Origin: Bacillota bacterium
Lineage (GTDB): Bacteria > Bacillota_I > Bacilli_A > RF39 > UBA660
Direction: 5' to 3'
Length of the DNA: 64,000 nt
NCBI GenBank assembly: GCA_023430885.1
Contig: JAEYYH010000015.1
Span: 3,743 to 67,742 of the forward strand
Part shown: positions 1 through 58,848 of the stretch, piece after piece
Layout: each line of letters begins with the position of its first letter
Numbering within the stretch: position 1 is the first letter of the stretch
Program-made: the position numbers and the translations under genes
The notes under the pieces: model-generated
Told to the model about the DNA's origin: nothing
The model's database searches: none
Seen by the model: only the letters and a program-made list of their open reading frames with translations

Positions 1-309
1 ACTTCACCATCAAGATTTCTAAGGACAGCTTATTTAAAGAGTTTCACTTATATACCAGAAAAAGATGATGAAGTAATAAATACATGCTTCAATATTATGA
101 AAGGTGTTACAATACCAAAAGGCACGGTTATAACAAAACGAGGAACAAATGATTATACTCAGTATACCGCTTTTATAAATACTGATAGTGGCGATTACTA
201 TTTTAATACTTATTCTAATAATCAAATAACTAAAGTAAATATAAATCAAATTGATAGTGATAATATAATTTCATTAGGAAAAATTAATAAACACATGACA
301 TTTAATTAG
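1..309 (+). CDS. 3' end of a hypothetical protein. The reading frame is open from the window edge; it is Tyr/Thr/Asn-rich and possibly a phage or cell-surface structural protein.
   Basis: Frame 1 has no stop from nt 1 to 309. The track ORF 97..309 is the tail of this longer frame. Confidence 0.4.
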   Translation, partial: TSPSRFLRTAYLKSFTYIPEKDDEVINTCFNIMKGVTIPKGTVITKRGTNDYTQYTAFINTDSGDYYFNTYSNNQITKVNINQIDSDNIISLGKINKHMTFN

Positions 310-429
310 TTAAATAACATAACTATAATCAAAATATCAATTAAAAAGATTGATATTTTTATTATTTATAGACAAATTCAACCAAAAACAATATAATAGA
401 AGATATAGAAAATTTCAGGGGGAATTTTT

Positions 430-1590
430 ATGGATATTAAAAGAAATGTATGTGCAATAATTGATGGACAAGCTGGTAGTTGTGGAAAAGGTAAGGCAAT
501 AGGGCAGTATGCTCTAGAAAAAAACGTTGAAGTGGCTATAGCTAACTGTATGCCTAATGCTGGTCATACATTTAGTAGTAATGGTAAAAAAAGGATATTT
601 AGAAATATACCTGTTTCTTCAGTAAATCTTAATACTAAGTTGTTTTTAGGAGCAGGTTCTGTTATTGATATGGAAGTCTTAGAAAAAGAATATGAAGATA
701 ATAAAGACATTTTAGAAGGTAGAGAAATAATAGTCCATCCTATGGTGCCAATTATTGAGCAAAGACATATTGATAGAGAAAAACAAGAACTAAGATCAGG
801 TTCTACTTTTAAAGGTGGAGGAGCCTGCTTAGCTGAAAAAGTTATGCGTAGCCCAGAACTAAAATTCTTTAAGGAATTTAAAAATATAAAAGCTGATGCA
901 GATTATCATCAAAAGTTAATTGCTAGTTTAAAAGAGGCAAAACATGTTTTAATTGAGGGATCACAAGGATGTGATTTAGATTTAAATCATAGTGGACACT
1001 ATCCATACGTTACTAGTAGACAAATTTCAGTAGCGCAAATGTGTGCTGATTCAGGAATATCTCCAATGCTTCTTAAAGATATTATTATGGTTATAAGACC
1101 TTTTCCAATTAGAATTAGTAATACAACTAATATAGGCAAGAAAATATATAGTGGCGATTATGGGCATTCTGAAGAATTGACTTGGGATCAGATAAATATA
1201 GGTGCTTTTCTTGGAATATATCCTACAATGATTGATGAAGCAATGATTGAAGAGTGGAAAGATTTAGTTAAAGATTATGCTGAATATACAACAGTTACTA
1301 AACAAAAAAGAAGAATATTTGATATAGATATAGAATTACTAAAAAAGAACGTTAATATAAATACTCCAACTAGCATTTATTTAAACTTCTTTCAGCATTT
1401 AGGAACCCAATATGAAAATGTTTCTGGCAAATACGATGGGTACGGAAACATATACATAGACAAATACCAACGAGAATATTTAGCGTGGTTAGAAGGGGAA
1501 TTAGATGTCCCAATAACTATGCTAGGCACAGGTGCAGATTTAAAAGAATATATAGATAGAACACCATATATTAAAAAATTATCAAAATAA
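430..1590 (+). CDS. Adenylosuccinate-synthetase (PurA) family protein, divergent. The P-loop-like motif is GSCGKGK instead of GDEGKGK, so it may be PurZ-like.
   Basis: Motifs alignable to PurA: QAGSCGKGK vs QWGDEGKGK; NAGHT; GSTFKGGG vs GTTGRGIG; EGSQGCDLDLNHSGHYPYVTS vs [20 protein letters not shown]. The SD sequence gggggaa lies upstream. The protein is 386 aa, shorter than bacterial PurA. Confidence 0.7.
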   Translation: MDIKRNVCAIIDGQAGSCGKGKAIGQYALEKNVEVAIANCMPNAGHTFSSNGKKRIFRNIPVSSVNLNTKLFLGAGSVIDMEVLEKEYEDNKDILEGREIIVHPMVPIIEQRHIDREKQELRSGSTFKGGGACLAEKVMRSPELKFFKEFKNIKADADYHQKLIASLKEAKHVLIEGSQGCDLDLNHSGHYPYVTSRQISVAQMCADSGISPMLLKDIIMVIRPFPIRISNTTNIGKKIYSGDYGHSEELTWDQINIGAFLGIYPTMIDEAMIEEWKDLVKDYAEYTTVTKQKRRIFDIDIELLKKNVNINTPTSIYLNFFQHLGTQYENVSGKYDGYGNIYIDKYQREYLAWLEGELDVPITMLGTGADLKEYIDRTPYIKKLSK

Positions 1591-1641: not shown

Positions 1642-2046
1642 ATGAAACAAATATCTAACGAAGATAAACAAGTTGGGATAAAGGAAAAAGCAATTGCTAA
1701 AATAATAACTATTACTTTATTTTCAATAGTTATTGTAGTGATTGTATCTATACTTGTAATTAAGTATTCATATAATAAAATTATTGAAGGGCTTTCTAAA
1801 AACACTTATTATGTTTTAGAAGTAGATGAAAACAATATAGAAAAGATAGTTTCGTTAATACAAGATGAAAAACAAACATATTGTGATTCTTTATATAAGA
1901 TAGAATATTATAATATGTTTCCTGACGGTACCTCTTATTTATTGTATTGTGAAGATGAAGATAATATAAAATTTAGTATTGATAAAGTTGGAACTGATGT
2001 GTTATCAAAATATATATATGATAATGGTACAAGAGGAGTAAGGTAA
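1642..2046 (+). CDS. Small single-pass membrane protein, hypothetical.
   Basis: SD ggagg is 8 nt upstream of the ATG. There is one hydrophobic helix (IITITLFSIVIVVIVSILVI). Confidence 0.5.
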   Translation: MKQISNEDKQVGIKEKAIAKIITITLFSIVIVVIVSILVIKYSYNKIIEGLSKNTYYVLEVDENNIEKIVSLIQDEKQTYCDSLYKIEYYNMFPDGTSYLLYCEDEDNIKFSIDKVGTDVLSKYIYDNGTRGVR

Positions 2047-2260: not shown

Positions 2261-3658
2261 ATGAGATTATATAATACGTTATCAAGAGAAATAGAAGATT
2301 TTAAACCAATTAGTGATAAAGAGGTCACTATGTATACATGTGGTCCTACTGTATATCATTACGCTCATATAGGGAACTTAAGATCATATATATCAGAAGA
2401 TATATTAGAAAAAGCATTAAACTATTTAGGTTACAATGTAAAAAGATGTATGAATATTACGGATGTTGGACATTTAAGTAGTGATTCAGATAGTGGCGAA
2501 GATAAAATGCTTAAGGGTGCTATTAGAGAACATAAAACTGTTTTACAAATAGCTGCTTACTATACTGAAGCTTTTAAAAAAGATTGTCAAAAACTAAATA
2601 TAGCTTGGCCAAAAATTGTGTCTCCAGCTACAGATAACATTGACGAGTATATTAAAATAATAACTGAGTTATTAGAGACTGGTTATGCCTATATTGCAGG
2701 CGGTAATGTTTATTTTGATACGTCAAAATTAAAAGATTATTATGTGCTTACTAATCATAAAGAAGACGAAATGGTAGTAGGTGTAAGAGAAGGTGTTGAG
2801 GAAGACACTAACAAAAGAAACCAAGCAGATTTTGTACTTTGGTTTACAAAATCTAAGTTTGATGATCAAGAACTAAAATGGGAAAGCCCATGGGGATATG
2901 GTTATCCAGGATGGCACATTGAATGTTCTGGTATCTCTTTAAAATATTTAGGCGAATTTTTAGATATACACTGTGGTGGAGTAGATAATATATTTCCACA
3001 TCATACCAACGAGATAGCTCAGTCTGAAAGTTATTTAGGCCATAAATGGTGTAATTACTGGTTTCATGTTGAACATTTAAATGATAATACTGGTAAAATG
3101 AGTAAATCAAAAGGCGATTTTCTTATGGTTTCACTACTTGAAGAAAAGGGTTATAATCCACTAGCATATCGTTTAATGTGTATGCAATCACATTACCGTA
3201 AACAATTATTATTCACTTATGATGCTTTGGATAATGCAACAAATGCATACAATAAATTATTAAGCAAAATAAAAAACTTAAAAGAAAATAAAGAAGGAGA
3301 TATCGAAGGTGTCGATAATTATATCGAAAGTTTTAAGAATTCTCTAGCAGATGACTTAAATACTGCTACTTCGTTAACCATTTTATATGATGTTTTAAAA
3401 AGTGATTTAAATAATAATTCTAAATTATATTTAGTTTCAGAATTTGATAAGGTTCTTTCATTAAATTTATTAAATGATGAAGTTACAGAAATTAATGAGG
3501 ATACTAAAAAGTACATTGAAGAAATGATTGAAAAAAGAAATGCTGCTAAGAAAAATAAAGACTTTGCTCTAGCAGATGAAATAAGGGATGAACTTGCTAG
3601 TAAAAATATATTTATTAAAGATACTAGAGAAGGTACTACTTACGAAATTAAAGAATAA
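2261..3658 (+). CDS. cysS: Cysteine--tRNA ligase.
   Basis: HIGN (HIGH-class) motif, KMSKS motif, length 465 aa, SD aggagg. Confidence 0.95.
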   Translation: MRLYNTLSREIEDFKPISDKEVTMYTCGPTVYHYAHIGNLRSYISEDILEKALNYLGYNVKRCMNITDVGHLSSDSDSGEDKMLKGAIREHKTVLQIAAYYTEAFKKDCQKLNIAWPKIVSPATDNIDEYIKIITELLETGYAYIAGGNVYFDTSKLKDYYVLTNHKEDEMVVGVREGVEEDTNKRNQADFVLWFTKSKFDDQELKWESPWGYGYPGWHIECSGISLKYLGEFLDIHCGGVDNIFPHHTNEIAQSESYLGHKWCNYWFHVEHLNDNTGKMSKSKGDFLMVSLLEEKGYNPLAYRLMCMQSHYRKQLLFTYDALDNATNAYNKLLSKIKNLKENKEGDIEGVDNYIESFKNSLADDLNTATSLTILYDVLKSDLNNNSKLYLVSEFDKVLSLNLLNDEVTEINEDTKKYIEEMIEKRNAAKKNKDFALADEIRDELASKNIFIKDTREGTTYEIKE

Positions 3659-4606: not shown

Positions 4607-4687
4607 AAAACTCTTTTACATTTATTAAAAGTATGGTATAATTTATTATAGATAAAATAGAGTAAAAGGGAATTGAAGGTGCTGCTT

Positions 4688-6973
4688 ATGCAAAATAAAC
4701 CTATATACTTATGGCCATTTATTGTAGTATATAGAATTGTAATAATGATTCTAAAGCTCCCATTAGCTATAATACATTACTTTTTAATGGGATTCTTTTT
4801 TTCAATATATACATTAATAGAAATATTTGTTGATATGGGAATATTTATTTCTTTTGTTTGGTGGAAATTTATTAAATATTTATTCTTAGGAATATCTTTG
4901 CCTATTGTATTAATAGGAAGAACATTAAAGCACACTAAAGATACTGCTATTAATGAAGAAGCTATTATTCCAAAACATGTAAAAGAGACTTCTAAGAATA
5001 AGTTTCCTAAACCAGTAAAAGCAATAGCCGCCGCTGCAGCTACTGCAGGTGTACTTAATGCTGGACCATTACCAGCAAAGGAAATGAGTAAAGCTGAGAT
5101 TGGAAAAGTTGATAAAGAACTTGAAAAATTAAAAAAAGAAAATGAAAAAGAAGCTGCAATTCATCAAAAGAAAATGGATGAACTTCATAAAAAAGAAGAA
5201 ATTAAAGCTGCTAAAGAAAAAATAAAATTAGATAAAATAACAAAGAAAAAAGAGGCTGAAGAATTAGCTAGACAAAAACAAGATGCTGAAAATCAAATAA
5301 AAGAACAGCAAATGCTTATGAGAGAAGAAAAACGTAAGCAAGAAGCTGCGGTAGCATTTGAGAAGAAAAAACTGGAAGAGTCCATAGTTAAAGAAAAGAA
5401 AGAAAAGCCAAAAAGCTTAGCCCAAACAAAAAAAGAACAAGCAAAAGCTGAAAAAATAAGATTAAAACAAGAAAAAATACAACATAAAAAAGAATTATTA
5501 GCAGAGCGAAAAAAATTCAAAGAGAAAAATACATATGTTAATGATAAAGTTGTTATTGAGAAGAAAAATCTTGGTGACTATATTAACTCTGGATTAGAGC
5601 AATTAATTAAAGTTCCTAAGATGTTTAAAGAGAAAGTTAAAAACAGTTTCTCTAATTCAGCATTTGTAAAGAATAGACGTAATGTTGAAGATATGCATCG
5701 TGAAGCATTGCTTATCGACTTTACAGGCGATGATGCCAAAAAGAGCGATAAAAAAATTGTTTATGAATATGTTGGAAAGAATGTTGAAGGAAAATTAGTA
5801 AAGGCATATTTTGAAGCTTTTTCTAAAGTTGAAGTTCACTCATTCTTACTTAGTGAAGGTTTTGAAGTATATAGTATAAAGACCAGTCCTTTGATTCAGT
5901 TCTTGCATGGAGCAAAACAATCTAGATCTGTTAGATTTAAAAATAAAGATTTAATATTTTTCTTAACTCAATTATCAACTTATATAAAAGCAGGTATACC
6001 ACTTGTTGAATCACTTAGAATACTAAGTAGACAGTTTCCTCAAAAGGGATATCAAAAAGTATTTAGGTCTATGATTTATGAGTTGACGATGGGGGATAAC
6101 TTTAGCGTAGCTTTAGAGAAGCAAGGTAATGCTTATCCAAAATTACTTGTAAACATGGTAAAGACTTCAGAAATGACTGGAGAACTTCCAGAAACACTTG
6201 ATGATATGCAAATATATTTTGCAGAAGCAGAAAAAACAAAAAAACAAATGATTACAGCACTTACTTATCCAACGATTGTATTTGTGCTTGCAATTGCTGC
6301 TATTACCTTCATCATGATATATATAGTTCCACAGTTTGCTGGAATATATGCTGATATGGATAATGCTAAATTGCCAGGCATAACAGTAGCAATCATGAAT
6401 GTCAGTGATTTCTTAAAGAATTATTGGATATATTTAATTGCGGTAGTATTTGGCGTTATATTTATATTTGGCTATTTATATCGTAATGTTAAATTATTTA
6501 GAACATTAATTCAGTGGTTTTTAATGAAATTACCAGTTATAGGGGATGTAATGATATATAATGAAGTTACGATGTTTACTAAAACATTTGCTTCTTTATT
6601 AAAACATAATGTATTCATTACTGATACAATGGAAATTTTGAATAAGATTACGAATAATGAAATTTGGAAAATGATTATTTTAGACACAATTACAAACCTA
6701 GCGAAAGGTGAGAAAATATCTCTTGCTTTCCAAGATCACTGGGCTGTACCAATTCCAGCTTACGAAATGATTGTTACTGGCGAAAGAACTGGTCAGTTAC
6801 CTGAAATGATGCAAAAAGTATCAGATTATTATCAAGAACTTCATAAGAATGCAGTAGGGAGAATTAAAGCATTTATTGAACCAATACTTATTTTATTTCT
6901 TACCGGAGCAGTAGGTGTTATTGTTCTTTCAATAGTAATACCAATGTTTGATATGTATTCACAATTAAGTTAG
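4688..6973 (+). CDS. pilC: Type IV pilus assembly platform protein (PilC/GspF family) with a long N-terminal extension of TM helices plus a Lys/Glu-rich helical region.
   Basis: The C-terminal ~400 aa contain two GspF-type domains (FLTQLSTYIKAGIPLVESLRIL...; LAFQDHWAVP...). The ATG at 4688 has the SD gaaggtg; the track TTG at 4673 is less likely. The N-terminal 360 aa are extra relative to typical PilC. Confidence 0.8.
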   Translation: MQNKPIYLWPFIVVYRIVIMILKLPLAIIHYFLMGFFFSIYTLIEIFVDMGIFISFVWWKFIKYLFLGISLPIVLIGRTLKHTKDTAINEEAIIPKHVKETSKNKFPKPVKAIAAAAATAGVLNAGPLPAKEMSKAEIGKVDKELEKLKKENEKEAAIHQKKMDELHKKEEIKAAKEKIKLDKITKKKEAEELARQKQDAENQIKEQQMLMREEKRKQEAAVAFEKKKLEESIVKEKKEKPKSLAQTKKEQAKAEKIRLKQEKIQHKKELLAERKKFKEKNTYVNDKVVIEKKNLGDYINSGLEQLIKVPKMFKEKVKNSFSNSAFVKNRRNVEDMHREALLIDFTGDDAKKSDKKIVYEYVGKNVEGKLVKAYFEAFSKVEVHSFLLSEGFEVYSIKTSPLIQFLHGAKQSRSVRFKNKDLIFFLTQLSTYIKAGIPLVESLRILSRQFPQKGYQKVFRSMIYELTMGDNFSVALEKQGNAYPKLLVNMVKTSEMTGELPETLDDMQIYFAEAEKTKKQMITALTYPTIVFVLAIAAITFIMIYIVPQFAGIYADMDNAKLPGITVAIMNVSDFLKNYWIYLIAVVFGVIFIFGYLYRNVKLFRTLIQWFLMKLPVIGDVMIYNEVTMFTKTFASLLKHNVFITDTMEILNKITNNEIWKMIILDTITNLAKGEKISLAFQDHWAVPIPAYEMIVTGERTGQLPEMMQKVSDYYQELHKNAVGRIKAFIEPILILFLTGAVGVIVLSIVIPMFDMYSQLS

Positions 6974-6992
6974 TCTTAGCAAGGGGGTATTT

Positions 6993-7757
6993 ATGGATTT
7001 GTATTATACAATAGTTATGTTTGTATTTGGAACCATCTTTGGTTCCTTTTACAACGTAGTAGGCGATAGATTACCGGATGGTAAGTCAATAATTAAGCCA
7101 GGAAGTCATTGTCCAAAATGTGGGCATATGCTTAAACCAATTGAGTTGGTGCCAATTTTCTCTTTTATAATTCAAGGTGGAAAGTGTAAAAAGTGTAAAT
7201 GCAAAGTTCCAATCTTTCATCCATTATATGAAATATTTGTTGGATTGTTATTTATGTTTTGCTATCTTTCATTTGGATTTAGTGCTAATTTAGTAGTAGC
7301 ATTAACATTTGCATCAATGCTTGCTATACTTATAGTAAGCGATTATTACTACATGATAATACCAGATGAGGTACTTGTAGTGTTTGGGGTTTTACTTGTT
7401 ATTGAAACGGCAATATTTCAAGGACCTATGGTACTATTAACTTCAATTTTAAATGGATTAATAGCTTTTGGATGTATGTTTGGATTAAAAAAATTTGGTG
7501 ATCTATTATTTAAAACTGATTCTATGGGTGGTGGCGATATTAAGTTACTATTCTTCTTTGGATTTGTTTTGGGCTGGGAGATGGCAATATTTGCTATATT
7601 CCTTGGATCATTAATTGGGTTGCCAGTTTCTTTAATAATATTAAAAACAAAAAAAACAAATATTATACCATTTGGACCATTTTTATCAATAGGCGCACTT
7701 ATTATAATGCTAACGCATTTTGATATTACAAAATTATTAAGTATATTACTTCAGTAA
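6993..7757 (+). CDS. pilD: Prepilin peptidase (A24 family).
   Basis: N-terminal zinc-ribbon CPKCGH...CKKCKC, multiple TM helices, GGGDIKLL motif. Confidence 0.85.
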   Translation: MDLYYTIVMFVFGTIFGSFYNVVGDRLPDGKSIIKPGSHCPKCGHMLKPIELVPIFSFIIQGGKCKKCKCKVPIFHPLYEIFVGLLFMFCYLSFGFSANLVVALTFASMLAILIVSDYYYMIIPDEVLVVFGVLLVIETAIFQGPMVLLTSILNGLIAFGCMFGLKKFGDLLFKTDSMGGGDIKLLFFFGFVLGWEMAIFAIFLGSLIGLPVSLIILKTKKTNIIPFGPFLSIGALIIMLTHFDITKLLSILLQ

Positions 7758-7761
7758 TATG

Positions 7762-8907
7762 CTTTTTTTTTGTATGATAATTTGTCAAATCAATTGCAAC
7801 AGTTAGTTAAATACTCATTAAAAGATTCATTTGGTGTCTTGTAGTTTATACATTTTCTAGGTCTATCATTAAGAAGTGTAAGTGTGTCTTGCTCTTCTTT
7901 TTCATTTGTTTTAGATAAATCCATTTGCTTTGGATAAAATTCTCTTAATAATCCGTTTGAATTTTCATTTGTTCCTTTTTGCCATGCACAATATGGATCT
8001 GCAAAATACATATTTGTATTGAGTTCTTCTTCTATACGTTTCCAACCTGCAAATTCTTTTCCTCTGTCACATGTTATTGTTTTAATAGCTTGTTGTGGGA
8101 ATTCTTTTAATAATTCAATTATTGCATTGGTAACAGTTTCTTCTTTTCTGTCTGGTATCCATTTAATTAAATATAACCTAGATTTTCTTTCTGCTAACGA
8201 TACAAAACAATATTTACTTTTTAAAGTATAATTATCGATTTTTCCTGAAACTACAGTATCTGCTTCCCAATGTCCAAACGTATTTCTTTTGTATACTTCT
8301 CTAGGACGTTTTTTTATTGTTTTACCTAAATTAAATCTTCCTCTTGTCTCTGTTGGTCTTTTGAATTTTCCTCTTCGTCTTAAATGTTCTATATTTGTTT
8401 TAGGAATATATCCTAAGTGAATCCATCTATAAATAGTAGATAAAGAAGGGAAAATATTTGGTTTATCAGAGGCATTTCTATTTACTATTTGATCTGGTGA
8501 CCAATGCAACTCTATTTTGTTTTTTATATAATTTATTGATTGTTTATTTGTACTTAATGGTCTATGACAATTAATTCTTCTTTCCTTATATTTTTTATTT
8601 GCAATAACTGGAGAATATCCAACTACTGAATAGTTTATTGATTTTTTATAAGAATTTCTTTTCAGTTCTCTAGAAATTGTAGAAACATTTCTATCAAGAA
8701 TTTTTGCCATTTCTCTTAAAGACATATTCATTTGCTTAAATTTACTTATACAAGCACGTTCTTCTATGGTAAGATGTATATAGTTCATATTATTACTCCT
8801 TAATGTTTGATTAGACACCAACATTATAACATGAGTAATATATGAACTTTTTTGTTTGTAATTATCAAGTGTTGCACTTGTTATTATAAATTATCGTATA
8901 AAAAAAG
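7762..8907 (-). mobile_element. IS30-family insertion sequence (~1.15 kb) inserted in the pilD-pilB intergenic region.
   Basis: Imperfect terminal inverted repeats of about 38-40 bp: 7762-7801 ctttttttttgtatgataatttgtcaaatcaattgcaaca vs the reverse complement of 8870-8907 ctttttttatacgataatttataataacaagtgcaaca. A single transposase ORF lies inside. There is a possible 3-bp direct repeat ATG at both junctions. Confidence 0.8.
7790..8824 (-). CDS. IS30-family DDE transposase.
   Basis: N-terminal HTH (LREMAKILDRNVSTISRELKRN) and a DDE core typical of IS30 (HWEADTV...DRGKEF...). Length 344 aa. Confidence 0.9.
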   Translation of the reverse strand: MLVSNQTLRSNNMNYIHLTIEERACISKFKQMNMSLREMAKILDRNVSTISRELKRNSYKKSINYSVVGYSPVIANKKYKERRINCHRPLSTNKQSINYIKNKIELHWSPDQIVNRNASDKPNIFPSLSTIYRWIHLGYIPKTNIEHLRRRGKFKRPTETRGRFNLGKTIKKRPREVYKRNTFGHWEADTVVSGKIDNYTLKSKYCFVSLAERKSRLYLIKWIPDRKEETVTNAIIELLKEFPQQAIKTITCDRGKEFAGWKRIEEELNTNMYFADPYCAWQKGTNENSNGLLREFYPKQMDLSKTNEKEEQDTLTLLNDRPRKCINYKTPNESFNEYLTNCCN

Positions 8908-8925
8908 ATGATATTTATTATCATC

Positions 8926-10572
8926 TTATAAATTAGTTATTTCTGGTATACCTGATGTAGAATTATTTGTTACTACATTATTTGCTTCTACTACACCAGG
9001 ATTTAATGTTTCTGGTGTAACTATACCAGCAGTAGGAACACCACTGATAACATCAGTAACCGGTTGCACAGGCTGCGTTCCATAGTTAACTGTATTTGGA
9101 ATTGCTTCTGCAACATAAGGATTTACTGGTGCTACTTGGGCAACTGGTGCCTCATAAGCTATTGGAGCTTCAGTAGGTACTACAGAAGGAATAACTGTAT
9201 TAGCAACTAATGGGATATTATTGTTAATATCGTTTGTATTATCAAAAGTAGTAGCTAAATTGTTACCTGTAATTTCTGAAATACCAGCAGTAGCAGGGGC
9301 CGGAATTTGTTCGCCACTATTTTCTGCGTTTGCAATTTCAGTGAATTCAAGAGCTTTCTTAAGATCTAATTCACCAGCTAATTTATCATCATCTTCAAGT
9401 TCTATTAATTTAAGTACTTCTTCAAATGTAGAATGTCCTTCGATAACTTTTTCAAGTCCATCTTGTAACAATGTTATAACATCAGAACCATATACAAGAC
9501 CACGAAGTTTTTCTTTTGGCATACCGCTTGATAAAGCATCACGAATATCTTGATTTATAACAAGAACTTCATGAATAGCTATACGACCAGTATAACCGTT
9601 GCCACACTCTTCGCACCCTACAGCAGAATATATTTCATTAACTTGTTTATTTAAAACTTTCCTGAATAATCTTTGTTCATATTCATTTGTTTTTCTTAAC
9701 GCTTTACATTTTGGACATAATCTACGAGCTAATTTTTGTGAAATTATTCCAGTTAATGCACTAGATAAAAGGTAGCGTTCAACTTCCATATCTAGTAAAC
9801 GTTCAATTGTATTAAGTGAATTGTTGGTGTGGATTGTAGATAATACTAAGTGACCTGTAATAGAAGCACGAACTGCTATTTTGGCCGTCTCAGTATCACG
9901 AATTTCTCCTATCATTATTATGTTAGGATCCTGACGTAAAATAGAACGTAGGGCAGTGGCAAAATTAAGTCCAATTTCACTATTAACTTGAACTTGGTTT
10001 ATACCTTCAATGTCCATTTCTATTGGGTCTTCAACAGTTATAAGATTAGTGTCCTCTTTATTTAATCTTTGAAGTATTGAGTATACTGTAGTAGATTTAC
10101 CACTACCAGTAGCTCCGGTAACTAATATGATACCGTTTGGAACACCAATCATATATAATACTTTATTAAAATTTGTAGCACTGAAATCTAATTGTTCTAG
10201 TCCATTTAAACTTTTTGTATAGTCAAGAATACGAATAACGATCTTCTCACCATTACTAACGGGTAGAACAGATACACGAAGATCTAAGTCCATGTCCTGA
10301 AGAGTAGCTTTGATAGCACCATCTTGAGGCAATCTAGACTCAGTTATGTTCATCCCTGCTATTATTTTAATACGAGTAGTTAAGTTCTTTTTAACTGCAT
10401 TAGGTATTTCAGCATAGTCTTGTAATGCTCCATCTATACGAATCCTTGCCTTCATGTATTTTTCTAATGGGTCGAAGTGAATATCACTCGCACCTCTCTT
10501 AGATGCATCAACAAGTATTTCATTAACGATTTCAACTATCGGCATCTTTTCAAAATCAAATGTTTTTAACAC
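8926..10572 (-). CDS. pilB: Type IV pilus/T2SS assembly ATPase (GspE/PilB/PilT family) with a ~150-aa Pro/Val/Thr-rich low-complexity C-terminal tail.
   Basis: Walker A GATGSGKSTT, Asp box, His box, tetracysteine motif CPKC...CEEC. There is no N1 domain; the tail PAPATAGISEITGNN...TNL is unusual. Confidence 0.9.
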   Translation of the reverse strand: MLKTFDFEKMPIVEIVNEILVDASKRGASDIHFDPLEKYMKARIRIDGALQDYAEIPNAVKKNLTTRIKIIAGMNITESRLPQDGAIKATLQDMDLDLRVSVLPVSNGEKIVIRILDYTKSLNGLEQLDFSATNFNKVLYMIGVPNGIILVTGATGSGKSTTVYSILQRLNKEDTNLITVEDPIEMDIEGINQVQVNSEIGLNFATALRSILRQDPNIIMIGEIRDTETAKIAVRASITGHLVLSTIHTNNSLNTIERLLDMEVERYLLSSALTGIISQKLARRLCPKCKALRKTNEYEQRLFRKVLNKQVNEIYSAVGCEECGNGYTGRIAIHEVLVINQDIRDALSSGMPKEKLRGLVYGSDVITLLQDGLEKVIEGHSTFEEVLKLIELEDDDKLAGELDLKKALEFTEIANAENSGEQIPAPATAGISEITGNNLATTFDNTNDINNNIPLVANTVIPSVVPTEAPIAYEAPVAQVAPVNPYVAEAIPNTVNYGTQPVQPVTDVISGVPTAGIVTPETLNPGVVEANNVVTNNSTSGIPEITNL

Positions 10573-10669
10573 TAAAATTCATCCCCTTTTTAAACTTTTG
10601 GACTAGCATTTATCCTGAATATATTATATAATATATTTAAAGTAAAAACAATAAGGAAGGACGACTTTT

Positions 10670-11641
10670 ATGAAAAAATTAGGTAAAAAGGGGTTTATGC
10701 TAACAGAAACTTTAATTGTTTCCACCATGCTTATAACAATACTAATAATACTATATGTACAATTTAAAAATGTTACTAGAAGTTTTTATGCAAGTTTTAC
10801 TTATAATACAGTTGGGAGTAGTTATAATTTATATAATGCTAAATTATATATAGAGCAGTCTGATTATAGCTTAATTGCAGAAAAATTAAAAACAAATACA
10901 TATATTGATTTGACCGATTGTCCTGGATCATATTTCACTAGTACTGACTACTGTGAAACATTATTTACTAAACTTGGTGTTACAAAAATAATAATGACTA
11001 ATGAAAATTTACATAGTTTAATTGAAGATAATGATTTTGACGGTGATTTTAATGACTTTTTAAATAGTATAGATTATGAATCGACTGACGGTTATCGCCT
11101 AATTGGATCGTTTAAAGATGGTACTTATGCAAGTATAAGAATATTAAATGGTGACAAATTTAATTTTGTTATATCCAATGCCTGCACAGCTACAAAGGAA
11201 GTTGCTTATAGAATAAATCATATAGTTATTCCTGAATCCAGTGCTACAGAAGGTTATAATTTAGCTGAGGATACAGTAGGAAAATCAGCTTGTGGTTCTA
11301 ATATAGTAGTTACAAATTATGCAATAACAAGTAATAGTTGCTATTATTTAACAAAAGTAAGTCCATCTAATACAATTGATTTAGGAATAGATGAAGATGC
11401 AAACAAGGCTACTATATATTATAGTAAATATGCATCTAATTTAACTATTAATCATTATAAAGTTGGTACTACGCAAGTTCTCTCTGATCCTACTATAGTA
11501 AGTAGTTTCTGTGGAAATGAGATATTAGTTGAACAATATAAAAAAAATATTGCCGGATATAATTATGACAGTGTAGAGCAAGAAACAGTAACGATGACTA
11601 GTACAGATACAACAGTTAATCTATACTATAAAGAGGTGTAA
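10670..11641 (+). CDS. Type IV pilin-like protein (class III signal peptide), large (323 aa).
   Basis: KKG|FMLTETLIVSTMLITILIIL has Gly at -1 and Glu at +5, with a hydrophobic N-terminal helix. Good SD. Confidence 0.7.
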   Translation: MKKLGKKGFMLTETLIVSTMLITILIILYVQFKNVTRSFYASFTYNTVGSSYNLYNAKLYIEQSDYSLIAEKLKTNTYIDLTDCPGSYFTSTDYCETLFTKLGVTKIIMTNENLHSLIEDNDFDGDFNDFLNSIDYESTDGYRLIGSFKDGTYASIRILNGDKFNFVISNACTATKEVAYRINHIVIPESSATEGYNLAEDTVGKSACGSNIVVTNYAITSNSCYYLTKVSPSNTIDLGIDEDANKATIYYSKYASNLTINHYKVGTTQVLSDPTIVSSFCGNEILVEQYKKNIAGYNYDSVEQETVTMTSTDTTVNLYYKEV

Positions 11642-11645
11642 TAAG

Positions 11646-13256
11646 ATGAATAAAAAAGGTTTTACAACAGTTGAATTGTTAGTTTCTTTTACTCTTGTTT
11701 CTATAATAGTATTTTTCTTATTTGAAATAATTTTTGTTTTAAAAGATTTATATGTTTCATCTGGTATAAAGACAAAATTACTTACAAAGCAAGCTGTAAT
11801 ATCTGAAATGATTAATGACGATTTTACTTCGTTAACTTTAGTATATGCTGATAAATGTGCTTCATCAGATGCTAATGCTGACAAAGAAGTATGTATTAAC
11901 TTTGCCTTTCAAGATATTACTAAGCAATTAGTAGTAGATAGAGAAAACGGGACTATTACTTGGGGAAACATAACAACTGCTTTAATAAGTGGTAGTGAGT
12001 TTGGAAATATAAAAATAAATAAGGAAACTTTAGTTCATGCTGAAGATACCGAGACGTTAAATGGTATTCTTACTATAAATATTCCAATTTACCATAAGAT
12101 TATCGAAGGGGAGGATTTTGGAATAAATATTAATTATCAATATAATAGTAATTCTGTATCTCTTGCTAATATCAATGTCAGTGACATAGTAGATGCTGAA
12201 AAAAAAGTTTATTTAATACTTGATGAGGATATTAAATTTCAAAATGTTGATTATATCGATCCTGGTTACTTCGTTGTTGATACAACAACAGGTCAAGTAA
12301 TAACAGATGCAACTGAACTTTCTAATTTAGTTAAGATAACTGGTGAGGTTGGTAATGAGCTAGGAGAAACTTATTATTTAACTTACACAATATATGATAT
12401 GAATAACGGTATAATGAGTCAGGCTACAAGAAGTGTTACAGTCCTTGCTTCAGAATATACTTATCAGATGACGGGGGATATTAAAACTCTTAATATTCCA
12501 ATTGCTGGTACTTATAAAATTGAAACATGGGGTGCATCAGGTGGCGGAACAACTATTATGAAAGGCCGTGGCGGATACACTTCTGGAACTTTTAAATTTA
12601 GTACGTTAGATACGCTATATATAGCAGTAGGCGGAGAAGGCACTACTGGTATTAGTAATACTGCTGCTGTTGGTGGTTATAATGGTGGCGGTGATTCCGG
12701 AGTTAGTACTTCTGATTATGCATCATCTGGCGGTGGCGCTAGCGATGTTAGATTAAACTCAAATTCACTTTCATCAAGAATAATCGTTGCCGGTGGTGGA
12801 GGCGGTGGTGGCTCACGAAATGACTCTACTGCTACATGTAATGGCGGTGCTGGCGGCGGAGCAACTGCCGGTATTGGAACATGTTCTGCTGAAAGTTATA
12901 TTGGTGGTGCAGGAACACCAACTGCTGGTGGTGCAGCAGCTACATATAATACAAACATAATTACGTCACCAACTTCTGGAAAAATTGGTATAGGAGGAAA
13001 TGGCGCAAGTTATCAAAACGTTACTGTAACCTCATCAGCCGGTGGTGGTGGCGGTGGTTACTACGGTGGCGGCGGTGGTTCACGTTTTGGAGGCGGGGGC
13101 GGTGGCTCAAGTTTCTGCGATTCATTAGCTGCAACTACGTGTGATACATTAGCACTGGGAACAGATAGTTTTCCAACCATTGACGGAAGAAATTATGAAA
13201 CGGGTCATATTGGTAATGGCTATGTTAAAATAACATTAATAAGTATGGCATCATAA
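11646..13256 (+). CDS. Type IV pilin-like protein with a C-terminal glycine-rich low-complexity domain (536 aa).
   Basis: NKKG|FTTVELLVSFTLVSIIVFF prepilin motif (E+5). The C-terminal third contains GGGGGGGS, GGGGGGYYGGGGGSRFGGGGGGS runs and a locally elevated GC content. Confidence 0.65.
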   Translation: MNKKGFTTVELLVSFTLVSIIVFFLFEIIFVLKDLYVSSGIKTKLLTKQAVISEMINDDFTSLTLVYADKCASSDANADKEVCINFAFQDITKQLVVDRENGTITWGNITTALISGSEFGNIKINKETLVHAEDTETLNGILTINIPIYHKIIEGEDFGININYQYNSNSVSLANINVSDIVDAEKKVYLILDEDIKFQNVDYIDPGYFVVDTTTGQVITDATELSNLVKITGEVGNELGETYYLTYTIYDMNNGIMSQATRSVTVLASEYTYQMTGDIKTLNIPIAGTYKIETWGASGGGTTIMKGRGGYTSGTFKFSTLDTLYIAVGGEGTTGISNTAAVGGYNGGGDSGVSTSDYASSGGGASDVRLNSNSLSSRIIVAGGGGGGGSRNDSTATCNGGAGGGATAGIGTCSAESYIGGAGTPTAGGAAATYNTNIITSPTSGKIGIGGNGASYQNVTVTSSAGGGGGGYYGGGGGSRFGGGGGGSSFCDSLAATTCDTLALGTDSFPTIDGRNYETGHIGNGYVKITLISMAS

Positions 13257-23323: not shown

Positions 23324-24307
23324 ATGTTTTTTAAAAAACTAGCGAAACCCGTACTTCTTCTTTCACTATTAGTTAGTATTCCAACAAACACTTATGCTTA
23401 TTCAGACTATCTCGCAGTAGGTGGAGACACAATAGGTATTACAATTAACACCGAAGGTATATTAGTGGTAGGAACATACATGGTAGGTGGTAATTTACTT
23501 GCTTCTGACTCAGATATCAAAATTGGCGACGTTATTGTTTCTAGTAATAAAAGCAATATAACTACTATTGAAGATTTTATGAATACTATTGATAGTAAAA
23601 CTTGCGAAAAATTAGATGTTAAATATAAGAGAGACAATAAGACCTATAGTACTACATTAAAATTAGCTATTGATGAAAACACTTGTAAAACTGGTCTTTA
23701 TGTTAAAGACAGTATTACTGGTATAGGTACACTTACGTTTATAGATCCTAATACTAAAATATTTGGTGCATTAGGTCATGAAATATTAGAACAATCTACT
23801 GGTAAAATAGTGGATACCGAAAGTGGTACTATATTTGATTCTGAAGTTATAAATGTAGAAAAAAGTACTAATGGTACACCTGGTGAAAAGAATGCCAGGT
23901 ATTATAGTTCACAGGTAGATGGAACTATATATGAAAATACTACCAAAGGTATATTTGGTTATTACTCTAGTAACATAGATAGTAGTAATTTGTATAAAGT
24001 TGCAAAAGTGCAAAATATTAAAAAAGGTGAAGCAAAAATACTGACAGTTTTATCCGGTACTGAAATTAAAGAATATAGTATAAATATTACCAAGATTAAT
24101 AATAATGGAGATACTAAAAATTTAGTGTTTGAAATAACAGATACTGATCTTTTAGAAAAAACTGGTGGCATAGTGCAAGGAATGAGTGGCTCTCCAATTA
24201 TTCAAGGTGACTACATAATTGGAGCAGTAACACACGTGGTGGTTGAAAATCCTACAAAAGGGTACGGAATATTCATAACTAATATGTTGGAGGAAGCAGA
24301 AAATTAA
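23324..24307 (+). CDS. spoIVB: Stage IV sporulation protein B (SpoIVB peptidase, S55).
   Basis: Signal sequence, PDZ region (GDVIVS), S55 catalytic region GALGHEI...GMSGSPI. A CATACTA -10-like element at 23285-23291 is consistent with a forespore sigma F/G promoter. Confidence 0.85.
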   Translation: MFFKKLAKPVLLLSLLVSIPTNTYAYSDYLAVGGDTIGITINTEGILVVGTYMVGGNLLASDSDIKIGDVIVSSNKSNITTIEDFMNTIDSKTCEKLDVKYKRDNKTYSTTLKLAIDENTCKTGLYVKDSITGIGTLTFIDPNTKIFGALGHEILEQSTGKIVDTESGTIFDSEVINVEKSTNGTPGEKNARYYSSQVDGTIYENTTKGIFGYYSSNIDSSNLYKVAKVQNIKKGEAKILTVLSGTEIKEYSINITKINNNGDTKNLVFEITDTDLLEKTGGIVQGMSGSPIIQGDYIIGAVTHVVVENPTKGYGIFITNMLEEAEN

Positions 24308-36107: not shown

Positions 36108-36135
36108 AAAGTAGATTACTCTACTTTTTTATTTT
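36107..36135. terminator. Bidirectional terminator between the merR-like gene and glmS.
   Basis: A-run, aagtagattactctactt hairpin, then T-run. Confidence 0.6.
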
Positions 36136-37946
36136 TATTCAACGGTAACTGATTTAGCAAGATTTTTTGGTTTGTCTATATCACATTTACGATATTTTGC
36201 AATTTCGTAAGAAATTAACTGTAATGGAACTACTGTTAATACAGCTTGAATTAATTTATTTGTTCTTGGAATAATAACCTTTTGATCATAAAAATTATCG
36301 TTAACATCTAAATCTTCAGTAATTATTAAAGTAACATTAGCACCACGTGCTTTGCATTCTTTAATGTTGCTAATTGTTTTTTCAGCTATTTTTGCCTCTG
36401 TTACAATAGCAATAACTGGTGTACCTTTATCTATTAAAGATATAGTACCATGCTTTAGTTCTCCAGCAGGATAACACTGAGAGTTGATATAAGATATCTC
36501 TTTAAGTTTTAACGATCCTTCCATAGCTAGAGCGTAATCAACATTTCTTCCTATAAAGAATACATCATTATGTTTATATAATTTCTTAGCAATATTTTTA
36601 TAATCTTCATGTTCATTTAATACAGATTGAATATTTGTTGGCAATTTTCTAATACAAGATATAGCTTCATTTGCTTCCTTATCACTCATTGAACCATTAT
36701 TAACAGCCATATTTATAGCAATTAAGGATAGCATAGTAACTTGAGCACTGTAAGCCTTTGTAGTGGCAACAGCTATCTCAGTACCAGCTTTTGTATATAA
36801 GACCATATCGGCATTCCTAGAAATTGTACTTCCAACTACGTTGATAATACCAAGGGTATCAGCACCAGCTTCTTTAGCAACTTTTAACGCAGCTAAAGTA
36901 TCTGCTGTCTCTCCTGATTGAGAAACTACAATTACTAAAACTTTGTTATTTAAAAATAATCTTTTATAACGATATTCACTTGCTACTTCAATATTAGTTG
37001 GAATATTTGCAAATTCTTCAATTATACTTTTCCCAACCATACCAGCATGCATTGCACTACCACAAGCGACAATATCTATTCGCTCATATTTACTGAAATT
37101 TGGCATGTTTTCTTTTAAACTCTGTACACCATTTTCTATATAAGGTAGGGCAGTAGCTTTAATTATTTCAGGTTCTTCAAATATTTCTTTAAGCATGTAA
37201 TGTTCATAACCGTTTTTATCAATTACATTACTACTTCCTTCAAAAATTTTAATATCTTTTTTAATAATATCAGCATTTCTATCGTATACAACAACTCTAT
37301 CATTACTCATTTTGGCAAATTCACCATCATCAAGAATAATATATTTATTTGTATATTTTAATATTGCAGGAACATCACTAGCAATATAATTTTCTTTATC
37401 ACCAATTGCAATAATTAGTGGACTATCTTTTTTAACCGCATATAAATGATGAAGATGATCATCACAAATAATTCCTAAAGCATATGCTCCAATTGCTCTT
37501 TCTTTAAAAATAGCAATAGTTTGTTCCATACTACCTGTTTCTTTATAAATATGATCAAGTAGGGCACACGCTACTTCTGTATCAGTAGAAGATTTAAAAG
37601 TATAACCTTCTTCAGTTAAATCCTTTTTTATATCCATATAATTTTCAATAATTCCATTATGAACTATTGAAATTTTGCCTACTTTATGAGGATGACTATT
37701 AATATAGTTAGGTTCCCCATGAGTAGCCCATCTAGTATGTCCTATACCTAAATTTGACTCTGTTTTTATATTTAATTTGTTCTTTAAGTTCGCAATTTTG
37801 CCTTTTTCTTTTTCTATTTCAAGTTTATCATTTTTAACAAAGGCAATTCCTGCTGAATCATAACCTCTATATTCTAGTCTTTCAAGACCGTCTATAATAA
37901 CTTGTAGGCATCTTTTATCGCCTACATAACCAATAATACCACACAT
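36135..37946 (-). CDS. glmS: Glutamine--fructose-6-phosphate aminotransferase.
   Basis: MCGIIGYVG N-terminal nucleophile, two SIS domains, 603 aa. Confidence 0.95.
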   Translation of the reverse strand: MCGIIGYVGDKRCLQVIIDGLERLEYRGYDSAGIAFVKNDKLEIEKEKGKIANLKNKLNIKTESNLGIGHTRWATHGEPNYINSHPHKVGKISIVHNGIIENYMDIKKDLTEEGYTFKSSTDTEVACALLDHIYKETGSMEQTIAIFKERAIGAYALGIICDDHLHHLYAVKKDSPLIIAIGDKENYIASDVPAILKYTNKYIILDDGEFAKMSNDRVVVYDRNADIIKKDIKIFEGSSNVIDKNGYEHYMLKEIFEEPEIIKATALPYIENGVQSLKENMPNFSKYERIDIVACGSAMHAGMVGKSIIEEFANIPTNIEVASEYRYKRLFLNNKVLVIVVSQSGETADTLAALKVAKEAGADTLGIINVVGSTISRNADMVLYTKAGTEIAVATTKAYSAQVTMLSLIAINMAVNNGSMSDKEANEAISCIRKLPTNIQSVLNEHEDYKNIAKKLYKHNDVFFIGRNVDYALAMEGSLKLKEISYINSQCYPAGELKHGTISLIDKGTPVIAIVTEAKIAEKTISNIKECKARGANVTLIITEDLDVNDNFYDQKVIIPRTNKLIQAVLTVVPLQLISYEIAKYRKCDIDKPKNLAKSVTVE

Positions 37947-37959
37947 TTTTACTTCCTCC

Positions 37960-38135
37960 TGTGCATTTTTTGCATAATAAAAATATATGTGTGATATATT
38001 TTTTGTCGTAATATTGATTTTACTATTTGTAATATATCTTTCGAATACACTTCCGTAGTAGCATCCGCTGATTACCTTATAATATAAGTTCGATAACTAC
38101 TATCCTCGTCAGCCCTTAGGCCCATGCGCTAATTA
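37960..38135 (-). ncRNA. glmS ribozyme: glmS ribozyme (GlcN6P-responsive self-cleaving riboswitch) in the glmS leader.
   Basis: The minus-strand RNA reads ...uuA|GCGCAUGGGCCUAAGGGCU GACGAGGAUAGUAGUUAUCGAACUUAUAUUAUAAGGUAAUCAGCGGAUGCUACUACGG.... This matches the conserved P2/P2.1 core GACGAGGAUGGAGGUUAUCGAA...GGCGGAUGCCUCC with compensatory changes (GUAGUAG/CUACUAC). Confidence 0.7.
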
Positions 38136-38174
38136 AAATGTTTCAGTTCTATCCTCCTATGAACATAATAACTT

Positions 38175-50440: not shown

Positions 50441-50470
50441 AAACGACACTATATACGGTGTCGTTTTTTT
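50441..50470 (+). terminator. Terminator after ftsZ.
   Basis: acgacac tatatac ggtgtcgt followed by a T-run. Confidence 0.6.
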
Positions 50471-50489
50471 ATAATATAGATGGTGATAT

Positions 50490-51288
50490 TATGAAAGTAT
50501 ATATAGATTTAGTATTAATACTTAATTTTCTTATAGATTTGGTTGTTTTAATTACTACTTCGTATGTACTTAAACGAAATATTAAGAGTATTAGGCTTGT
50601 ATTAGGCGCTTTAGTAGGATCATTAACAACACTATTTCTTTTCATTAAACTTAGCTCAGTAACATTGTTTTTATTAAAAGTAGTAATAAGTATTTTAATG
50701 ACTATTACTACTTTTTCATATCGAAATATAAAATACACTTTAAAAAATATTAGTTATTTATATATAGTAAGTATTATTTTAGGAGGATTTATATATTTTT
50801 TAAATATTCAATTCTCTTATAAAAATATTGGTTTTGTTTTTAGGAGATATGGTCTTAGTATTAACTATATATTTATTCTTCTTTTTTCACCTATAATATT
50901 ATATTTATATTCTAAACAAGTAAAAGAATTAAAAAATAACTTTTCTAATTATTATAAAGTAGACATACATTTAAATAATTATATTATCAAGGTTAATGCT
51001 TTTTTAGATACAGGTAATAAACTTGTTGATCCTTATTTAAAAAGACCAGTTATTATTTTAAATAGAAAAAAGATAATATATGATATTAATGAATTTCAAA
51101 TGGTTTTGGTGCCTTATAAGACTATAACTGAGTCTAAGGTATTAGATTGTATTATTGCCTCTAAAGTTGTTATAAAGGGCATTGGAAGTAAAAATAATGT
51201 ACTTGTAGGGCTTATGGACGATAACTTGAAAATAAATGGTGTAGATTTAATATTAAATACAAAATTACTGGAGGAAATAAATGTTTAA
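50490..51288 (+). CDS. spoIIGA: Sigma-E processing peptidase SpoIIGA.
   Basis: MKVYIDLVLILNFLIDLVVL, a typical SpoIIGA N-terminus. Membrane domain plus C-terminal aspartic protease region (FLDTGN). Immediately upstream of sigE. Confidence 0.8.
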
Positions 51289-51973
51289 AAAATTAATAGA
51301 TTTTATAGTAAGTATTTTTAATGATGAAGTAAATATATTCTTTATAGGTTCAGCTGATAAATTACCTGAACCACTAACTAAAGAAGATGAAGTAAAGTAT
51401 GTAGAATTATCTATGCTAGGAGATGAATCAGCAAGGAAAAAACTTATTGAACATAACTTAAGACTAGTTGTATTCTTATCAAAAAAATATGAAAATACTG
51501 GTGTTGATTTAGAAGATTTAGTAAGTATAGGAACAATAGGATTAATAAAAGGTGTCAATACTTATAAACTTGATAAAAATATTAAACTTGCTACTTATGC
51601 ATCAAGATGTATTGATAATGAAATACTAATGTTTTTAAGAAAAAATAAAAAAAGAAAAACAGAGATAAGTTTTGAAGATAGTTTAAGTTATGATAGTGAA
51701 GGTAATGAACTACATTTAGAAGATATACTTGGTACTGAAGATGATGTAGTTACTAAATGTATTGAGGATTCAGATGATAAAAAACTTTTGTATAAAGTTA
51801 TAACTAACTTAAATGATCGTGATAGACAAATAATGATTTTAAGATATGGACTATATAATAAAGAAGAAATGACTCAAAAGGATGTCGCAAGTTTACTTGG
51901 TATTAGTCAATCTTATATATCAAGAATAGAAAAGAAGGTAATTAAGAAACTTAAAATATTATCTAAAATTTAA
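51281..51973 (+). CDS. sigE: RNA polymerase sporulation sigma factor E (pro-sigma-E).
   Basis: N-terminal pro-sequence, region 2 (LRLVVFLSKKY...DLVSIGTIGLIKGVNTY), region 4 (QKDVASLLGISQSYISRIE). Confidence 0.9.
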   Translation: MFKKLIDFIVSIFNDEVNIFFIGSADKLPEPLTKEDEVKYVELSMLGDESARKKLIEHNLRLVVFLSKKYENTGVDLEDLVSIGTIGLIKGVNTYKLDKNIKLATYASRCIDNEILMFLRKNKKRKTEISFEDSLSYDSEGNELHLEDILGTEDDVVTKCIEDSDDKKLLYKVITNLNDRDRQIMILRYGLYNKEEMTQKDVASLLGISQSYISRIEKKVIKKLKILSKI

Positions 51974-58841: not shown

Positions 58842-58848
58842 GGTAATT

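Follow-up and report, generated by a model that had tools for sequence, protein, structure and literature searches.

The 64-kb stretch of contig JAEYYH010000015.1 analyzed here, referred to in its full length as the window, carries at positions 430–1590 of its forward strand a gene whose product (the window protein) combines the short form of the adenylosuccinate synthetase (AdSS) fold with active-site substitutions that mark PurZ, the phage ligase with which the 2-aminoadenine (Z) pathway begins. The residue signature of this protein and the recruitment of two phosphohydrolases beside the genes of its relatives lead us to propose an active enzyme, encoded on the chromosome of an uncultured, spore-forming, low-GC member of the gut Bacilli, that would use ATP to join aspartate to a guanine nucleotide in the manner of PurZ, a proposal to which we give about an even chance. 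The protein is one of a large and conserved ligase family of uncultured low-GC gut Bacilli that is undescribed in the literature searched. By signature and likely mechanism it appears PurZ-like, yet it lies outside PurZ as curated, because it scores below the cut-off of the hidden Markov model for that family, is non-viral, has no recognized Z-cluster partners, and falls in a distinct clade.

Active-Site Residues

The features of the gene on which the argument draws are listed below; PurA residues are given in the numbering of the E. coli PurA literature, in which the residue map was made.

430..1590, + strand: coding sequence of the PurZ-like, short-form AdSS-fold ligase, 386 amino acids (aa), ATG start, PF00709 match at E=2e-34
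418..423, + strand: ribosome-binding site (RBS) GGGGGA, 6 nt ahead of the ATG at 430, read off the sequence
369..397, + strand: promoter-like TAGACA-17 nt-TATAAT, 33 nt before the start codon, 11/12 consensus positions
475..495, + strand: P-loop G16-S17-C18-G19-K20-G21-K22, with Ser17 in place of the PurA catalytic Asp13
556..570, + strand: NAGHT, residues 43-47, with N43 as PurA N38 and H46 as the catalytic acid H41, family-invariant
1114..1185, + strand: I229-W252, an extended loop of the PurZ type that follows the PIRI strand and ends in ELTW, from the alignment
1288..1314, + strand: TTVTKQKRR segment, with T287 (PurZ T262, PurA G298), T290 (PurA T301), Q292 (PurA R303), and R294 (PurA R305)
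1381..1398, + strand: LNFFQH, the nucleotide-triphosphate base pocket, with F320 (PurZ F295, PurA K331), Q322 (S-2L Q308, PurA D333), and H323 (PurZ Y298)

The initial annotation had described a short, divergent, PurZ-like homologue of PurA with GSCGKGK in place of GDEGKGK, and this description is borne out at the sequence level: the Pfam match is clear, the altered P-loop occupies residues 16–22, the motifs STFKGGGA (124–131) and EGSQG...HYPYVTS (176–196) are retained beside NAGHT, the protein is 46 aa shorter than the 432-aa E. coli PurA, and Ser17 is joined by Thr287, Phe320, Gln322, the lost Arg303, the Trp252 loop, and a position in the tree outside cellular PurA. The E. coli residues K16, N38, H41, T129, R143, Q224, T239, T301, and R305 are all kept and are invariant across the family, while five positions are substituted (D13 to S17, G298 to T287, R303 to Q292, K331 to F320, and D333 to Q322); judged from the alignment, the altered positions are exactly those that distinguish PurZ from PurA.

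The literature on phage PurZ gives these substitutions their meaning. Ser stands at the P-loop position in 100% of 147 phage PurZ sequences, whereas Asp13, described as essential in PurA, is 99% conserved there (PMC12884076); among the 120 best homologues of the window protein, Ser is found in 113 and Asp in 5. In PurZ, S14 and T262 make room for the amino group at position 2 in deoxyguanosine monophosphate (dGMP), F295 and Y298 stack on ATP's adenine, the S14D exchange abolishes selectivity, and W252 of the phiVC8 enzyme is the top differentially conserved residue (bioRxiv 2025.10.22.683976). In S-2L PurZ the substrates are contacted by S23, T273, and Q308, and the contact of Arg303 to the 2'-OH is lost (PMC8342488). 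Within the family of the window protein T287, T290, and R294 are invariant and position 292 is variable (K/Q/M/R); Phe320 is likewise invariant, and the guanine-specifying Asp is replaced by Gln322, as by Q308 in the S-2L enzyme. W252 aligns with W252 of phiVC8 PurZ, and the residues between I229 and W252 number 22 in the window protein, 15 in phiVC8 PurZ, and 13 in E. coli PurA.

Two positions depart from characterized PurZ. At position 323, the equivalent of phiVC8 Tyr298, the family representatives have His (7), Tyr (3), or Gln (2), and His323 of the window protein is conservative without being identical; at position 15, where F12 of phiVC8 places an aromatic ring beside the 2-amino group, the window protein has Ala15, as do 11 of 12 family representatives, and this aromatic feature of PurZ is lacking. 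Over 19 family members at 52–88% identity there are 66 invariant columns, every remaining catalytic residue included. Because the catalytic residues are kept and family-invariant, the enzyme is probably active, and probably a dimer of the short-form PurZ type.

Phylogenetic Position

A search of 1.84 billion cluster representatives returned 183 proteins at E<=1e-30, and nearly all of the top 150 have the P-loop Ser. In a neighbor-joining (NJ) tree built from 152 sequences and bootstrapped 200 times, the Ser-type proteins stand apart from E. coli PurA, Pyrococcus horikoshii PurA, and the archaeal-type P0232 in 200/200 replicates, and the window protein thus falls in the Ser-type PurZ radiation, outside cellular PurA, as far as a distance tree with few outgroups can place it. 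The same tree, which has three Asp-type outgroups, groups the window protein with phiVC8 and S-2L PurZ to the exclusion of PurZ0 in 145/200 replicates. The family of the window protein forms a clade of its own (200/200), distinct from characterized PurZ, and its sister clade (170/200) holds phage-borne genes in replication and nucleotide-metabolism modules (L089, L108).

Phosphohydrolase Partner Genes

The loci extended roughly 10 kb to either side of a homologue, and for the partner analysis the ORFs (open reading frames) around 80 of them were clustered. Of the 67 assessable loci, 37 have a co-oriented Ppx/GppA-like gene of 298 aa that begins the pair 20–31 nt upstream of the ligase gene, and it accompanies both length forms of the ligase. 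Its product matches PF02541 at E=6e-7 (29.6 bits) and TIGR03706 at E=1e-10 to 9e-16, retains the Glu, Glu, and Arg that are catalytic in the Ppx/GppA family, and by these profiles is a remote but full-length member; the best Protein Data Bank (PDB) match of its own profile is H. pylori GppA (6pc0), a guanosine pentaphosphate phosphohydrolase, at E=1.7e-5. Adjacent copies are 66–99% identical to each other, and the partner family, with 1278 members, is comparable in size to the ligase family with 1225. In a sister subfamily of 361-aa ligases, a 143-aa Nudix hydrolase gene lies 6–17 nt upstream in 9/9 loci, in chromosomal context. The remaining neighbors in the clustering (ABC transporters, UvdE, a serine recombinase) are only lineage-restricted.

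That two unrelated nucleotide phosphohydrolases have been recruited to the same position suggests that the substrate of the ligase is a monophosphate in short supply, such as dGMP, and not the abundant inosine monophosphate (IMP). The pairing of Ppx/GppA-like or Nudix genes with the ligase would thereby parallel that of MazZ, DUF550, or DutZ with PurZ in phages.

Two further observations concern this neighborhood. In one sub-lineage a gene for a UvdE-family UV-damage endonuclease stands directly upstream of the Ppx-like/PurZ-like pair in at least five loci (L104 2552-3514; L105-L107 181-1143; L019 474-1433), which connects the pair with DNA repair at the level of gene order. Some family members have nucleotide-sanitizing genes within 5 kb, namely Nudix, an NT5C-like 5'-nucleotidase, dUTPase_2, and an HD+CYTH protein (L100 5700-6746 and 14422-14907; L007 6462-8860), an association that is not statistically enriched.

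Proposed Mechanism

By analogy with PurA and PurZ, ATP rather than GTP would phosphorylate O6 of a 2-amino-6-oxopurine nucleotide, most likely dGMP and possibly GMP, with His46 as the acid and with Lys20 and the P-loop holding the phosphates. L-Aspartate, gripped by Thr290 and Arg294, would then displace the phosphate and give N6-succino-2-amino-(deoxy)adenylate, from which the adenylosuccinate lyase of the cell could produce a 2-aminoadenine nucleotide. In many relatives the monophosphate would probably be supplied by the co-oriented phosphohydrolase encoded upstream (Ppx/GppA-like, or Nudix in the sister subfamily), which would play the part of MazZ.

Extended to its end, this scheme would amount to a cellular Z pathway in gut Bacilli, in which the phosphohydrolase yields dGMP, the ligase together with PurB and kinases yields dZTP, and 2-aminoadenine enters the DNA or the nucleotide pool; we regard this extension as distinctly unlikely. 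When E. coli PurA and PurB were compared by tblastn with the window and 87 related cellular loci (1.36 Mb, about 1% of the genome space), only PurZ-like genes and no purB were found, a result that at this coverage is uninformative.

Comparison with Characterized Enzymes

Phage PurZ (N6-succino-2-amino-2'-deoxyadenylate synthase; phiVC8 6FM1/6TNH, S-2L 7ODX) shares with the window protein the short-form AdSS fold, with template modeling scores (TM-scores) of 0.75–0.76 on the query and 0.83–0.84 on the target, and also Ser for Asp13, Thr for Gly298, Phe with Gln or Asn for Lys331 and Asp333 (the ATP-type pocket), the loss of the Arg303 contact, the extended loop ending ELTW, and, at 145/200 in the NJ tree, a place on the same side of the PurZ/PurZ0 split; in relatives of the window protein, moreover, the ligase gene has a nucleotide phosphohydrolase gene as its companion, just as mazZ accompanies purZ. 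The differences are that the identity to the window protein is only 29–35%, that the window protein scores below the NCBIfam PurZ cut-off, and that the window family is a separate clade (200/200); that the window gene is bacterial and chromosomal, with DatZ, MazZ, and DpoZ not recognized nearby (no dedicated search); that the relatives have a Ppx/GppA-like or Nudix partner in place of MazG or DUF550; and that the P-loop reads GSCGKGK instead of GSTGKG(L), while Phe12 and Tyr298 are replaced by Ala15 and His323.

PurZ0, the GTP-using enzyme (Gordonia phage Archimedes, 7VF6), likewise has the P-loop Ser, Thr at the equivalent of position 262, and the short form, but it keeps the guanine-specifying Asp (D305) and Met303 where the window protein has Gln322 and Phe320, lies outside the clade of the window protein and PurZ (145/200), and is 28.5% identical to the window protein. 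Archaeal PurA (P. horikoshii 5K7X/2D7U) is of a similar length class and also lacks the insertions of bacterial PurA; it differs in its GDEGKGS, Gly246, Arg251, and Asp281, which are the IMP- and GTP-type residues, has no PurZ loop (the alignment breaks at residue 230), and is set apart from the Ser-type proteins at 200/200. With E. coli PurA (b4177) the window protein shares superfamily, chemistry, and the nine retained residues named above, whereas identity is only about 25%, the E. coli enzyme is 46 aa longer, and its Asp13, Gly298, Arg303, Lys331, and Asp333 are all changed in the window protein; in PurA, Lys331 and Asp333 are guanine-specific, and Arg303 touches both the 2'-OH and aspartate.

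At the level of gene modules, the MazZ-PurZ, DUF550-PurZ, and DutZ-PurZ0 systems of phages resemble the relatives' loci in having a (d)NTP phosphohydrolase gene tightly beside the ligase gene, and in using phosphohydrolase folds that differ from lineage to lineage, the theme that has been called "functional convergence" (PMC12884076). They differ in that ASKHA Ppx/GppA-like and Nudix partners are unreported with PurZ in the literature searched, in that the relatives' modules are cellular, and in that the window copy is solitary.

Evidence Against the Proposal and Competing Functions

A number of observations weigh against a PurZ-type function. The NCBIfam PurZ model NF038379 gives 200.3 bits for the window protein, a score that does not reach its cut-off of 300 and is no better than that of the archaeal PurA model NF003295 (196.2 bits, cut-off 368), the bacterial PurA model TIGR00184 standing lower at 140.9 bits (cut-off 395.55). 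The AlphaFold2 model, with a pLDDT of 88, has its best PDB folds in 5k7x, 6fm1, and 7odx, and Foldseek finds PurZ 6fm1, 6tnh, and 7odx at E of about 1e-25 to 1e-23, which identifies the AdSS fold in its short form; TM-scores are equal for archaeal PurA and PurZ, and the fold comparison is thus without power to separate them, just as the best PDB sequence matches, P. horikoshii PurA at E=7e-36 and phiVC8 PurZ at E=3e-35, are equally good. The tree is distance-based, with sequences picked by their similarity to the query and with three Asp-type outgroups only, one of them a partial sequence rebuilt from the alignment. The window copy is solitary, with no Ppx-like or Nudix partner gene within 64 kb, and no mazZ-, datZ-, or dpoZ-like gene was recognized near it or among the window ORFs, which were read by eye with a few scanned against Pfam and without a dedicated search. 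Finally, the making of Z nucleotides is toxic in E. coli (PMC8342488).

The strongest competing explanation is that the gene encodes the housekeeping AdSS of its lineage, which would convert IMP and aspartate to adenylosuccinate in an archaeal-like short form that has exchanged Asp for Ser and GTP for ATP in salvage-dependent, reduced genomes. We consider this possible though unlikely. It would suit a gene that is chromosomal, native in composition, and provided with its own promoter-like site, that is widespread and well conserved (at least 165 species), and that all naming sources call adenylosuccinate synthase, and it would account for the retention of all residues that bind phosphate, ribose-5'-phosphate, and aspartate and for the rank of P. 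horikoshii PurA as top PDB match by sequence and by fold. Canonical purA is seen neither in the window nor in the 1.36 Mb of related loci, but absence over about 1% of the genome space proves nothing. On the other side, the Asp13 that this explanation must dispense with is essential and 99% conserved in PurA, and the Ser that replaces it confers guanine selectivity in PurZ (PMC12884076; bioRxiv 2025.10.22.683976). Ser17 is accompanied by Thr287, as in PurZ, and Arg303, invariant in PurA, is variable in the family; tight operons with Ppx/GppA-like or Nudix genes are unexpected for a user of abundant IMP, and one metagenome-assembled genome (MAG) has two divergent paralogues (L062, L082).

Rather unlikely, in our estimate, is a neofunctionalized PurZ-type ligase whose product is not destined for DNA. 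Such an enzyme would act on another guanine-type nucleotide, with ribo-GMP, 8-oxo-dGMP, xanthosine monophosphate, or an alarmone-derived 5'-monophosphate such as pGpp as candidates, and would serve in nucleotide-pool control, signaling, or a metabolite pathway. Both partner families are known for removing 5' phosphates from (p)ppGpp, the product being ppGpp for GppA and pGpp for NahA, a Nudix enzyme; Nudix enzymes of the MutT type make 8-oxo-dGMP. This explanation agrees with the guanosine pentaphosphate phosphohydrolase found as best PDB match of the partner profile, with the lack of recognized genes of the DatZ and DpoZ types, by which the product would be channeled into DNA (again with no dedicated search), and with Ala15 and His323, which are unlike characterized PurZ. 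It is, however, speculation from the names of the partner families, the partner resembles GppA only remotely (E=1.7e-5; Pfam 29.6 bits), the locus shows neither a riboswitch nor a regulator that would tie it to the stringent response, and the PurZ-type loop that excludes a 2'-OH contact appears to be kept.

Chromosomal Context and Integrity of the Gene

The genes that flank the ligase gene are the following.

1..309, + strand: 3'-terminal part of a gene of the choloylglycine hydrolase family (CBAH), a neighbor only, PF02275 match at E=2e-22
1642..2046, + strand: gene, preceded by a GGAGG RBS of its own, for a predicted membrane protein of 134 aa, downstream of the ligase gene
2261-3658: cysS, downstream of the ligase gene

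Beyond the gene for the 134-aa protein and cysS lie truB and a type IV pilus-like cluster with an inserted IS30-like transposase, and further downstream are mutS, dxs, xseA, spoIVB, glmS with its ribozyme, murG, murB, ftsA, ftsZ, spoIIGA, and a gene for a sigE-like sigma factor; the window is ordinary chromosome of a spore-forming Firmicute with 28% GC. An identical ligase gene is found on contig L006, which extends 3.7 kb further upstream and there contains the complete CBAH gene, encoding a 326-aa hydrolase, with a Big_14 protein and two unannotated ORFs. The ligase gene has a GC content of 0.31 (0.17 at third codon positions, GC3), similar to cysS and truB, and is therefore native to the chromosome.

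The gene had initially been placed at the edge of phage-like DNA, next to the housekeeping gene cysS, and of this only the neighboring cysS has stood. The ORF at 1–309 is indeed rich in Thr, Asn, and Tyr, as had been remarked, but it is the C-terminus of the CBAH protein and not a phage structural or receptor-binding protein, and the phage structural genes that might have been looked for further upstream do not appear in the extra 3.7 kb of L006, where nothing matches PHROG. A phage or prophage PurZ, belonging to a Z-genome cluster on the margin of integrated phage sequence, is accordingly highly improbable and is effectively excluded at this locus. The PurZ-like signature residues, a match to phrog_1211 at E=3e-56, and the phage-borne genes of the sister clade speak for it; the flanks, however, are CBAH, cysS, truB, and other housekeeping genes, base composition is native, and a PHROG scan of the neighbors and of the L006 upstream ORFs (about 4 kb) gave no matches. 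Neither integrase nor phage structural genes lie near the ligase gene, the nearest mobile gene being the IS30-like transposase 6 kb downstream. Scans of viral contigs (IMG/VR) with the protein and with the family alignment found a best relative only 37% identical and no viral member of the family, the top GenBank phage match (Bacillus phage vB_BpsS-140) has 34.6% identity, and other family members occupy different chromosomal contexts.

An inactive, decaying PurA paralogue (inactivity was one alternative named in the initial annotation) is hardly credible and for the window locus effectively excluded: the catalytic Asp is lost, two related loci (L021, L026) have the gene split into two ORFs, and the motifs of a small subgroup are degenerate (GDCGKGK together with NADHT), but 66 columns, the remaining catalytic residues among them, are invariant over 19 members at 52–88% identity, the ORF is intact and preceded by an RBS, and the structure model is confident at pLDDT 88.

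As to expression, the promoter-like site at 369–397 is the top-scoring one within 1–2400 and falls inside the 120-nt gap after the CBAH gene; the number of such sites in the region is not above that of shuffles, and the site is only suggestive. Rfam has no match upstream of the window ligase gene, nor, in 17 related loci, ahead of the operons. The gene for the 134-aa membrane protein is possibly co-transcribed with the ligase gene, no terminator-like site lying between them; the protein has no match in Pfam, NCBIfam, PHROG, or PADLOC, and its gene is neither enriched beside ligase homologues nor conserved with the family. PADLOC gives no defense-system match for the ligase or for the Ppx-like partner.

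Other Features of the Window

The type IV pilus or competence-like cluster spans 4673-13256. It comprises a pilC-like T2SSF protein (4673-6973) whose N-terminus is extended by a Lys/Glu-rich stretch of about 400 aa, a prepilin peptidase (6993-7757), the IS30-like transposase, which has inserted in the opposite orientation (7790-8824), a pilB-like ATPase (8926-10572, − strand), and a pseudopilin-like protein (11646-13256) that bears an ALK/LTK glycine-rich domain (PF12810, E=1e-37). A glmS ribozyme/riboswitch (RF00234, 60 bits, 37983-38141, − strand) precedes glmS (36135-37946, − strand) and is the sole Rfam match of the window at the gathering threshold; a T-box ahead of cysS was not detected. 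Genes for SpoIVB peptidase (23324-24307), SpoIIGA (50458-51288), and an adjoining sigE-like sigma factor (51281-51973) make the organism probably an endospore former, although its relatives are labeled as Bacilli or Tenericutes MAGs. A Ham1/RdgB-family non-canonical purine NTP pyrophosphatase (58804-59424, + strand, PF01725 at E=2e-20) is encoded 57 kb from the ligase gene, adjoining unannotated ORFs and a radical SAM gene (60355-61128).

Distribution and Variants of the Family

The family counts 1225 homologues at E<=1e-5, and the gene is carried by at least 165 species (one genome per species). The 120 best homologues are 45–95% identical to the window protein, and the best homologues occur in two length forms, one of 385 aa and one of 455 aa with an insertion of about 70 aa. 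All of the 80 best loci come from uncultured gut MAGs labeled Bacilli, Tenericutes, Bacillales, or Clostridia, with 23–33% GC, among them Ca. Onthousia, Ca. Ventrenecus, and one closed chromosome of 1.52 Mb. The neighbors are cellular but vary with the species (mgtE; metK/murE/ddl; parAB; recD2/comF).

Several variants deserve mention. In P0055, P0057, P0060, P0064, and P0069, which are 56–57% identical to the window protein, the P-loop Asp is restored (GDCGKGK), and P0055 and P0060, the two that were looked at more closely, read NADHT for NAGHT and IIPH(D/S)G for TTVTK; from the alignment, the joint change of the Ser and Thr positions suggests a further functional change, or decay. The MAG CALVKA01 has two divergent paralogues, one of the 361-aa, Nudix-linked type (L062 2807-3874) and one of 455 aa (L082 10001-11371). 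In two loci (L021 10001-11173, L026 9992-10844) the gene is split into two ORFs, which could reflect a frameshift, a pseudogene, or an assembly error. One gut Bacilli MAG has a full-length OLE RNA (RF01071, 368 bits, L041 8700-9284, − strand) about 4 kb from its PurZ-like gene.

Biological Significance

According to a 2026 paper, natural dZ-DNA is reported only in phages (PMC13128860), and the most recent PurZ phylogeny in the literature searched lists only four non-phage relatives, all of them archaeal (PMC12884076); no description of the bacterial ligase clade, or of its Ppx/GppA-like and Nudix partners, was found in the literature searched. Cells as well as phages may thus run Z-type chemistry, and the family raises the questions of whether any cells contain 2-aminoadenine nucleotides, where phage PurZ originated, and whether thousands of "adenylosuccinate synthetase" annotations in gut MAGs are wrong. 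If the enzymes prove to be ordinary AdSS instead, the supposedly essential Asp13 and the specificity for GTP would be shown to be dispensable. If a cellular Z pathway is real, the Z base would have its first natural source outside viruses, and the family would represent either a possible reservoir, in cells, that gave rise to phage PurZ or a phage gene that has been domesticated.

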